Positions 8,139-9,310 of a stretch of DNA of 64,000 nucleotides are shown in pieces; the first letter of the stretch is position 1, and the number at the start of each line of letters is the position of its first letter. Where the stretch lies: the NCBI RefSeq assembly GCF_050920415.1, contig NZ_CP169309.1. The stretch is one strand, 5' to 3'. Below the pieces are notes generated by a model. The model was not told the origin of the DNA, did not search any database, and saw only the letters and a program-made list of their open reading frames with translations. Source of the DNA: Escherichia coli (GTDB taxonomy: Bacteria > Pseudomonadota > Gammaproteobacteria > Enterobacterales > Enterobacteriaceae). A program made the position numbers and the translations under genes.

Positions 8139-9310
8139 ATGCTGAGCAGAGAGGACTTTTACATGATAAAGCAAATGCGCCAGCAAGGTGCGTATATTGT
8201 TGATATTGCCACTCAGGTTGGTTGCTCTGAGCGGACTGTCAGACGGTACCTGAAATACCCGGAACCTCCGGCCAGAAAAACACGCCACAAAATGGCCAAA
8301 CTCAAGCCGTTCATGGACTATATCGACATGCGTCTGGCTGAGAATGTCTGGAACGGCGAGGTCATCCTGGCGGAAATCAAAGCGATGGGTTATACCGGTG
8401 GCCGTTCCATGTTGCGTTACTACATCCAGCCCAAACGTAAGATGCGGCCATCGAAGAAAACGGTTCGCTTCGAAACTCAGCCCGGTTACCAGCTACAGCA
8501 TGACTGGGGAGAAGTTGAGGCTGAGGTTGCCGGGCAACGATGCAGGGTTAACTTCGCGGTTAATACGCTGGGGTTCTCACGTCGCTTCCATGTCTTCGCG
8601 GCACCAAAGCAGGATGCTGAACATACCTATGAGTCACTGGTCCGCGCCTTTCGCTACTTCGGCGGCAGCGTGAAAACCGTGCTGGTCGATAACCAGAAAG
8701 CCGCAGTGCTGAAAAATAACAACGGGAAGGTGGTGTTCAACTCCGGGTTCCTGCTGCTGGCCAATCACTATGGCTTCCTGCCACGGGCCTGCCGTCCACG
8801 AAGGGCCAGAACCAAAGGTAAGGTGGAACGGATGGTGAAATACCTCAAGGAAAACTTCTTCGTCCGGTACCGCCGGTTCGACAGCTTCGCCCATGTTAAT
8901 CAGCTACTGGAGCAGTGGATGGCTGACGTTGCCGACAGGCGGGAACTTCGCCAGTTCAGGCAGACACCGGAACAGCGCTTCACGCAGGAACAGGTGCATC
9001 TGCAGGCGCTGCCAGGTACGGACTTCGATACCAGCTACTTCGATATCCGTCATGTCTCCTGGGATGGCTATATCGAGGTTGGCGGGAACCGTTACAGCGT
9101 GCCGGAAAGCCTGTGTGGCCAGCCGGTATCAATACGGATCTCGCTGGATGATGAACTGCGATTTACAGTAATGAGCAACAGGTAGCATTGCACCGTCTCT
9201 GTTCGGCTGTATACGGCTGGCAGACCGTGCCGGAGCATCACGCCCCACTCTGGCAGCAGGTCAGTCAGGTGGAACACAGGCCGTTGAGTGCCTATGAGGA
9301 GCTGTTGTGA
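8139..9310 (+). pseudogene. istA: IS21-family transposase IstA, apparently frameshifted
   Basis: 348-aa ORF 8139-9185 (MLSREDFYMIKQMRQQGAYIVDIATQVGCSERTVRRYLK..., HTH then DDE region); a second frame is open from about 9155 to a TGA at 9308-9310 overlapping the istB start. Confidence 0.7.

Follow-up and report, generated by a model that had tools for sequence, protein, structure and literature searches.

The istA gene of an ISEc62-type insertion sequence (IS) in Escherichia coli contig NZ_CP169309.1 is recorded as frameshifted, and the break is caused by a single absent G in codon 341. We analysed a 64,000-nucleotide stretch of this contig (the window) and judged that the gap is more likely an artefact than a real mutation, because the differences that set this copy apart cluster at Dam sites, its substitutions are all G>A or C>T, the element is otherwise invariant, and the flanks beside it are free of errors. 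That the base is missing through a sequencing or consensus artefact is probable rather than certain, a sequencing origin being suggested by the pattern of differences. What the analysis establishes is the identity and the ends of the element, its target duplication, the place of the absent base to the nucleotide, the uniqueness of that gap and a non-random pattern among the differences. The insertion itself is an ordinary ISEc62 (IS21 family) that transposed into yhbX.

The boundaries of the element were set by comparison with the empty yhbX site of E. coli MFDS1022581, the nearest genome, which has a single TAAT at this place. The element and its surroundings comprise the following features:

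7165..8037, + strand: 5' part of yhbX (phosphoethanolamine transferase family), a gene split by the IS and mapped against intact relatives
8034..8037, no strand: left target-site duplication TAAT, 4 bp
8038..10161, + strand: ISEc62-type IS21-family insertion sequence, 2124 bp, with 99.8% identity to copies that PGAP names 'IS21-like element ISEc62 family'
8038..8049, + strand: left terminal inverted repeat TGTCAGCGCCAA, which agrees with the right end, reverse-complemented, at 11 of 12 bases
10150..10161, - strand: right terminal inverted repeat, reading TGTCAACGCCAA on the - strand, from comparison of the two ends
10162..10165, no strand: right target-site duplication TAAT, 4 bp, from the empty-site comparison with MFDS1022581
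10166..10918, + strand: 3' part of yhbX, mapped against intact relatives

A query with 8038-10161 returned hundreds of full-length matches in E. coli chromosomes and enterobacterial plasmids, the best of them 99.8% identical. The matched records are annotated as 'IS21-like element ISEc62 family transposase' and 'IS21-like element helper ATPase IstB', and copies at 98.3-99.8% identity to the window element are named 'ISEc62 family' by PGAP. Full-length copies without the indel measure 2125 bp, against 2124 bp in the window. The duplicated TAAT is a short direct target duplication of the size that defines the IS21 family (4-8 bp), and the ends carry the family's TG...CA terminal inverted repeats with internal repeat copies at both ends: additional TGTCCGC repeats are found at 8080 at the left end and, on the - strand, with starts at 10120 and 10097 at the right end. 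By analogy with IS21 and IS5376, we infer that the terminal repeats are putative IstA-binding sites. Between them lies the family's gene pair, istA (HTH and DDE transposase) followed by istB (AAA+ helper ATPase). The element thus shows the gene pair, the terminal repeats and the target duplication that define an ISEc62-type IS21-family IS, while the stop/start overlap of its two genes is reached in a shifted frame (see below); the word 'autonomous' does not apply to it as recorded, the missing base being the one reason.

MFDS1022581 and N96, the nearest relatives, have an intact yhbX of 1626 nt. The insertion into yhbX is real and common to several isolates, because identical yhbX::IS junctions (100%) occur in three other assemblies, GCA_000194575.2, GCA_037967425.1, and GCA_002965625.1. 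The same junctions point to a sub-lineage of the clone that is predicted to lack functional YhbX. The contigs of these three assemblies end at window position 8586 on the left and begin at 10067 or 10085 on the right, so the interval 8763-9189 lies outside them.

Within the element, the transposase is spread over two frames and the helper gene follows:

8139..9185, + strand: istA as read, 348 codons, ending ISLDDELRFTVMSNR, with the stop at 9183-9185
9161..9310, + strand: displaced istA tail in the -1 frame, codons 342-390 and TGA, matching intact IstA except for S351L
9310..10104, + strand: istB, intact helper AAA+ ATPase, 264 aa from an ATG that overlaps the tail TGA, with GAGGAG 8 nt upstream

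Codons 1-341 of the window istA are authentic apart from one change, D209N; seven out-of-frame codons (FTVMSNR) and a TAG follow. The product scores 280.7 bits against NCBIfam NF033546 (IS21 family transposase, transpos_IS21; cut-off 160), and Pfam places an HTH, rve at 113-222 and Mu-transpos_C_2 at 291-357 on an intact homologue (L002). A second frame is open from 9155, just after a TGA at 9152-9154, to the TGA at 9308-9310. A sequence-only reading of the window had reported both this frame and the end of istA at 9185 (348 aa), and the ORF list and the raw sequence confirm them. Translated from 9161, the second frame begins IYSNEQQVALHRL and equals residues 342-390 of the intact 390-aa ISEc62 IstA (WP_000952431.1), save for S351L. 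By this translation, the tail is the true C-terminus of IstA and not a chance ORF pattern.

IstB scores 297.4 bits against NF038214 (IS21_help_AAA; cut-off 200), and its gene has the same coordinates as the istB annotated in three other copies (L002-L004). A GTG at 9307 is a second in-frame candidate for the istB start. The stop/start overlap of istA and istB, which had been taken for the normal arrangement, is what intact copies show: their istA is 1173 nt long (390 aa) and its TGA overlaps the istB ATG. This TGATG is present at 9308-9312 of the window as well, where it is reached only via the -1 frame, the frame-0 stop being at 9183-9185. As recorded, the copy lacks the full-length IstA, complete in its β-barrel and C-terminal extension, that makes an element autonomous; it would possess one if the missing G were an error.

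We aligned the window copy with four other copies (L001-L004), all of which have an intact istA and one of which (L001) has a frameshifted istB. The alignment contains a single gap, in the GG of codon 341 at window position 9159/9160, within the range 9145-9160 in which a 1-nt indel had been predicted. When the G is restored, the product is 390 aa long and differs from the reference only by D209N and S351L. In intact copies, the missing G is the first base of a GATC Dam site or the base just before it. The window copy shows four differences in all:

8763, + strand: G>A, unique to the window copy, D209N; destroys a GATC site
9159..9160, + strand: missing G, CGG to CG, codon 341, from the alignments with other copies and a GATC census
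9163, + strand: C>T, synonymous (Ile342), at the C of the GATC that lost its G; found otherwise only in the MFDS1022581 copy L001
9189, + strand: C>T, unique to the window copy, S351L in the displaced tail; outside any recognised methylation motif

All four fall within istA, between 8763 and 9189. The rest of the IS, ends included, is identical to intact copies.

The G of codon 341 is present in every other copy that we examined. The deletion was not found in about 280 places in 5,426 complete E. coli genomes, searched with both the window and the consensus backgrounds, and all 60 of the E. coli matches listed span 82 nt rather than 81. It was likewise not found among about 650 plasmid places, and exact matching of the deletion 34-mer gave nothing in GTDB representative genomes or in JGI metagenomes; these collections thus yielded no shared or recurrent deletion allele. 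The substitution 8763A had no 100% match among the 280 E. coli places, the collection to which that search applies, and across the E. coli and plasmid collections 9189T was confined to the window copy. Exact-product look-ups returned no record of either the 348-aa truncated IstA or the repaired N209/L351 IstA. We also rejected a naturally short IstA. The sequence-only reading had named a close intact homologue ending at 9185 as a finding that would speak against it; none appeared, all close homologues being 390 aa long, and the shortening of IstA to 348 aa from about 390 holds.

Two frames that overlap invite the idea of programmed recoding, in which a -1 ribosome shift between 9155 and 9185, or RNA polymerase slippage, would yield full-length IstA. 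What speaks for it is geometry: the frames share 30 nt (9155-9185), and at any point of this stretch a -1 shift would restore a near-native protein. However, we found no slippery heptamer of the form X XXY YYZ in 9141-9186, the longest homopolymer in 9140-9190 is 3 nt, and all other copies at 98-99.8% identity are single-frame with the extra G, so that the two-frame layout is not conserved among the relatives examined. We rejected recoding on account of the absent heptamer, the absence of runs longer than 3 nt and the singleton layout; it is vanishingly unlikely, and the undescribed recoding site that had been entertained for this position is unsupported. In IS3 and IS1, which use programmed -1 frameshifting, the transposase is likewise encoded jointly by two partly overlapping frames, but there the frameshift design is family-wide, whereas the window is a singleton with no slippery motif and an unconserved layout. 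Expression in the IS21 family does not, to our knowledge, involve frameshifting. Its known variants are alternative in-frame starts (cointegrase form; PMC10122671). Extremely doubtful, too, is the pair of ideas that a functional two-frame IstA arises by an unconventional -1 shift or that the truncated IstA(1-341) acts as a trans-dominant inhibitor of other ISEc62 copies; the inhibitor is conceivable because the DNA-binding and DDE domains would be kept and IstB engagement lost.

All four differences are gathered in a 427-bp stretch (8763-9189) of an element of 2124 bp, a concentration that would also suit gene conversion, with all four acquired jointly from a diverged IS21-family copy in the same cell. 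Yet neither 8763A nor the combination of 9163T with 9189T is found in any copy in the E. coli and plasmid collections. Donors of 90-95% identity would, moreover, bring many more differences to a 427-bp tract, and none such were seen. We rejected conversion from a diverged copy, whose donor alleles were not found, and consider it very improbable.

A real deletion would make the window ISEc62 copy a transposase pseudogene, with an IstA that ends after Arg341 and seven foreign residues. We regard this as possible but doubtful. In its favour, the deletion is present in the given sequence, and the unique flanks show 0 indels when compared with an independent assembly, which means that indels are not a general weakness of the record. 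The yhbX insertion is itself real, as its junctions in the three other assemblies attest, and outside the four istA differences the IS matches intact copies up to and including its ends.

The affected part of the protein is also one that matters in IS5376, whose IstA and IstB from Geobacillus stearothermophilus (PDB 8B4H, 8Q4D) form a structurally characterised IS21-family transpososome. The 390-aa ISEc62 IstA aligns with IS5376 IstA (PDB 8B4H) over its full length (E = 2e-82), and the residue numbers coincide around 341. Both proteins have the domain order HTH, DDE, β-barrel, C-terminal extension, and ISEc62 keeps Tyr343 and the C-terminal RPLS-Y motif; IS5376 is nevertheless a distant relative, and its Arg345 is Asn in ISEc62. 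In IS5376 IstA, residues 300-355 form the β-barrel, and a C-terminal extension of ~45 residues comes after it (PMC10122671). The barrel of the catalytic subunits docks into IstB, and in a Y343A/R345A double mutant and a 1-287 truncation both the stimulation of the IstB ATPase and integration are strongly reduced (PMC11208146).

If the deletion is real, IstA would be without the last β-barrel strand or strands (Mu-transpos_C_2 291-357), the IstB-contacting Tyr343, and the ~45-residue RPLSxY tail. By homology to the IS5376 mutants, such a protein would probably be unable to work with IstB or to integrate. istB would lose translational coupling, with the istA stop 122 nt upstream, but would keep its own GAGGAG. 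Mobilisation in trans would still be possible because istB and both ends are intact; the copy would be movable only with IstA supplied in trans from an intact copy and would be non-autonomous rather than dead.

Several observations tell against a real deletion. It requires three unique changes and one shared change in 2.1 kb of a nearly invariant IS subtype, where 0.05 are expected. The concentration in GATC sites and the restriction to G>A and C>T are without a known biological cause. Finally, the sister assembly has similar IS-confined differences in an insertion whose orthologue is canonical in an older assembly (see below). The verdict of the sequence-only reading that the element is 'probably non-autonomous or dead' is less safe; its own caveat of an assembly error is the more likely of the two in view of the Dam-site clustering, the G>A/C>T type, and the clean flanks.

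Our preferred explanation is that the missing G would be a consensus error, made in base calling or polishing and confined to a multi-copy repeat, of the kind that long-read assemblies make at methylated GATC sites. The real element behind the record is then probably an intact, autonomous ISEc62. The uniformity of the element was judged from a sample of 10 other copies that encode the identical 390-aa IstA and come from various chromosomes, plasmids, and strains. Nine of the 10 are 100% identical over 2125 bp and the non-MFDS copies have 1 SNP in total, compared with 4 differences in the window copy. An intact element holds seven GATC sites, or 1.3% of its bases. Three of the four differences (8763 G>A, the missing G at 9159/60, and 9163 C>T) fall in two of these seven sites (P ~9e-6), and so do two of the three changes that are unique to the window copy (P ~5e-4). 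When the altered sites are counted instead, the IS has 2 of 7 and the flanks 0 of 274 (Fisher p = 5e-4), and it must be said of the GATC test that it was chosen post hoc, after the data had been seen. All three substitutions (8763, 9163, and 9189) are C>T or G>A, as expected of methylation-associated long-read consensus errors, and so is the location of three of the four differences in a methylated motif (GATC or CCWGG).

The flanks serve as the reference for these numbers. Over 61.9 kb they differ from MFDS1022581 by 3 SNPs and 0 indels, 64 homopolymers of at least 6 bases included. Because the flank divergence is 3 SNPs in 61.9 kb, the IS should have gained only ~0.05 changes since it inserted; the probability of three or more is 2e-5. 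The flank SNPs are a derived T in MFDS1022581 at 12313, a derived G in the window at 24455 (deaD), and a derived T in the window at 32716; their directions are mixed, with one C>T in MFDS1022581 and one A>G and one C>T in the window. Dam-site damage was not seen in the flanks, where 0 of 31 window-lineage-specific differences are in GATC. Since there is no GATC damage and the SNP directions are mixed, the flanks neither support nor contradict a nanopore-only origin of the record.

An artefact also has points against it. The missing G lies in a GG dinucleotide and not in a long homopolymer. The flanks are error-free, so the error must be confined to the repeat, which would suit an assumed failure of short-read polishing in multi-copy sequence. 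If 9163T is real and inherited, the site reads GATT in the window copy and would be unmethylated. Frameshifted IS transposase genes, moreover, are common in real genomes.

We then considered the damage in other ISEc62 copies. The yibH copy of MFDS1022581 (L001; NZ_CP169399.1 142533-144656) has the same C>T in the same GATC, and its istB is frameshifted by the loss of an A from an A6 run. GCA_000194175.2, an older assembly made independently, has a canonical copy as the orthologous yibH insertion, and 5048 bp of flank are identical. In a further MFDS1022581 copy (L010; NZ_CP169399.1 ~2520546-2522668), istA is broken by a deleted G in GGG, and istB has the same A6 deletion. Both L001 and L010 are annotated as frameshifted in MFDS1022581. 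Their frameshifts look technical too, because the GCA_000194175.2 copy at yibH is canonical with identical flanks. A plasmid copy (L009; NZ_AP025752.1 47575-49694) differs from its near-identical twin L002 in seven columns, all in five CCWGG (Dcm) sites; the changes there are T>C or deletions, and the only other difference is the same A6 deletion. These differences follow the textbook pattern of methylation and homopolymer errors. The istA and istB of L009 are absent from the PLSDB gene table, which omits pseudogenes. Taken together, the clean flanks, the uniform element, the Dam sites, the type of substitution, and the damage in the sister assembly indicate that, in assemblies that are clean elsewhere, the long-read errors that remain accumulate in ISEc62 copies.

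The case presents no new kind of phenomenon: the IS is well known, and it is nothing unusual for one copy to have a damaged transposase gene. The biological weight of the case is small, and its use is in annotation hygiene, as it gives the exact position of an indel and a warning that the label of pseudogene may have a technical origin. Annotation would mark the copy as a frameshifted pseudogene, yet the pattern of its differences suggests that this label stems from the chemistry of sequencing and not from biology. Tallies of 'decayed' IS copies drawn from long-read assemblies may be too high for the same reason.

The rest of the window was surveyed for RNA features, and the chromosomal ones that were expected, SraG, the rpsO and rimP leaders, and RNase P RNA, were all found:

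12782-12882, + strand: rimP leader, by gathering score
19163-19277, + strand: rpsO (S15) leader, by gathering score
19506-19677, - strand: SraG sRNA, by gathering score
57321-57697, + strand: RNase P RNA, by gathering score

Two direct repeats of ~85 bp, 92% alike, lie between yraQ and dolP at window positions 33820-33994 and match Rfam naRNA4 (REP325/BIME-type). A further copy is at 17581-17651; such REP elements are ordinary in E. coli. The aga/kba cluster is complete in the window and in MFDS1022581. E. coli N96 (NZ_CM169999.1 36503-41524, corresponding to window ~38600-41600) has, in place of agaI-agaD-agaC-agaB, genes for an MBL-fold hydrolase, a LysR regulator, a MalY/PatB-like protein, and a MalX-like PTS protein.

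Two further known systems can be set beside the window copy. The first is the set of methylation-linked errors reported for nanopore R10.4.1 assemblies, which are G>A and C>T changes at methylated motifs with GATC dominant (PMC11610603). Those errors are substitutions, whereas the frame break of the window is a deletion, and the substitution at 9189 is outside any known motif. The likeness is in the window substitutions, which are G>A and C>T and affect the G and the C of GATC, and in the sister records, whose errors are limited to Dam and Dcm motifs and short homopolymers. The second is ISEc62 itself, for which the copies in E24377A (NC_009801.1) and in plasmid pla1 of Escherichia sp. 10290 (NZ_AP025742.1; IstA WP_000952431.1, IstB WP_000544800.1) serve as references, with 99.8% nucleotide identity to the window copy over the whole element. 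The window differs from them by one G less in codon 341 of istA, by the base changes at 8763, 9163, and 9189, and by its length of 2124 rather than 2125 bp. In its ends, the order of istA and istB, the TGATG overlap, and an intact istB, it is like the reference copies.
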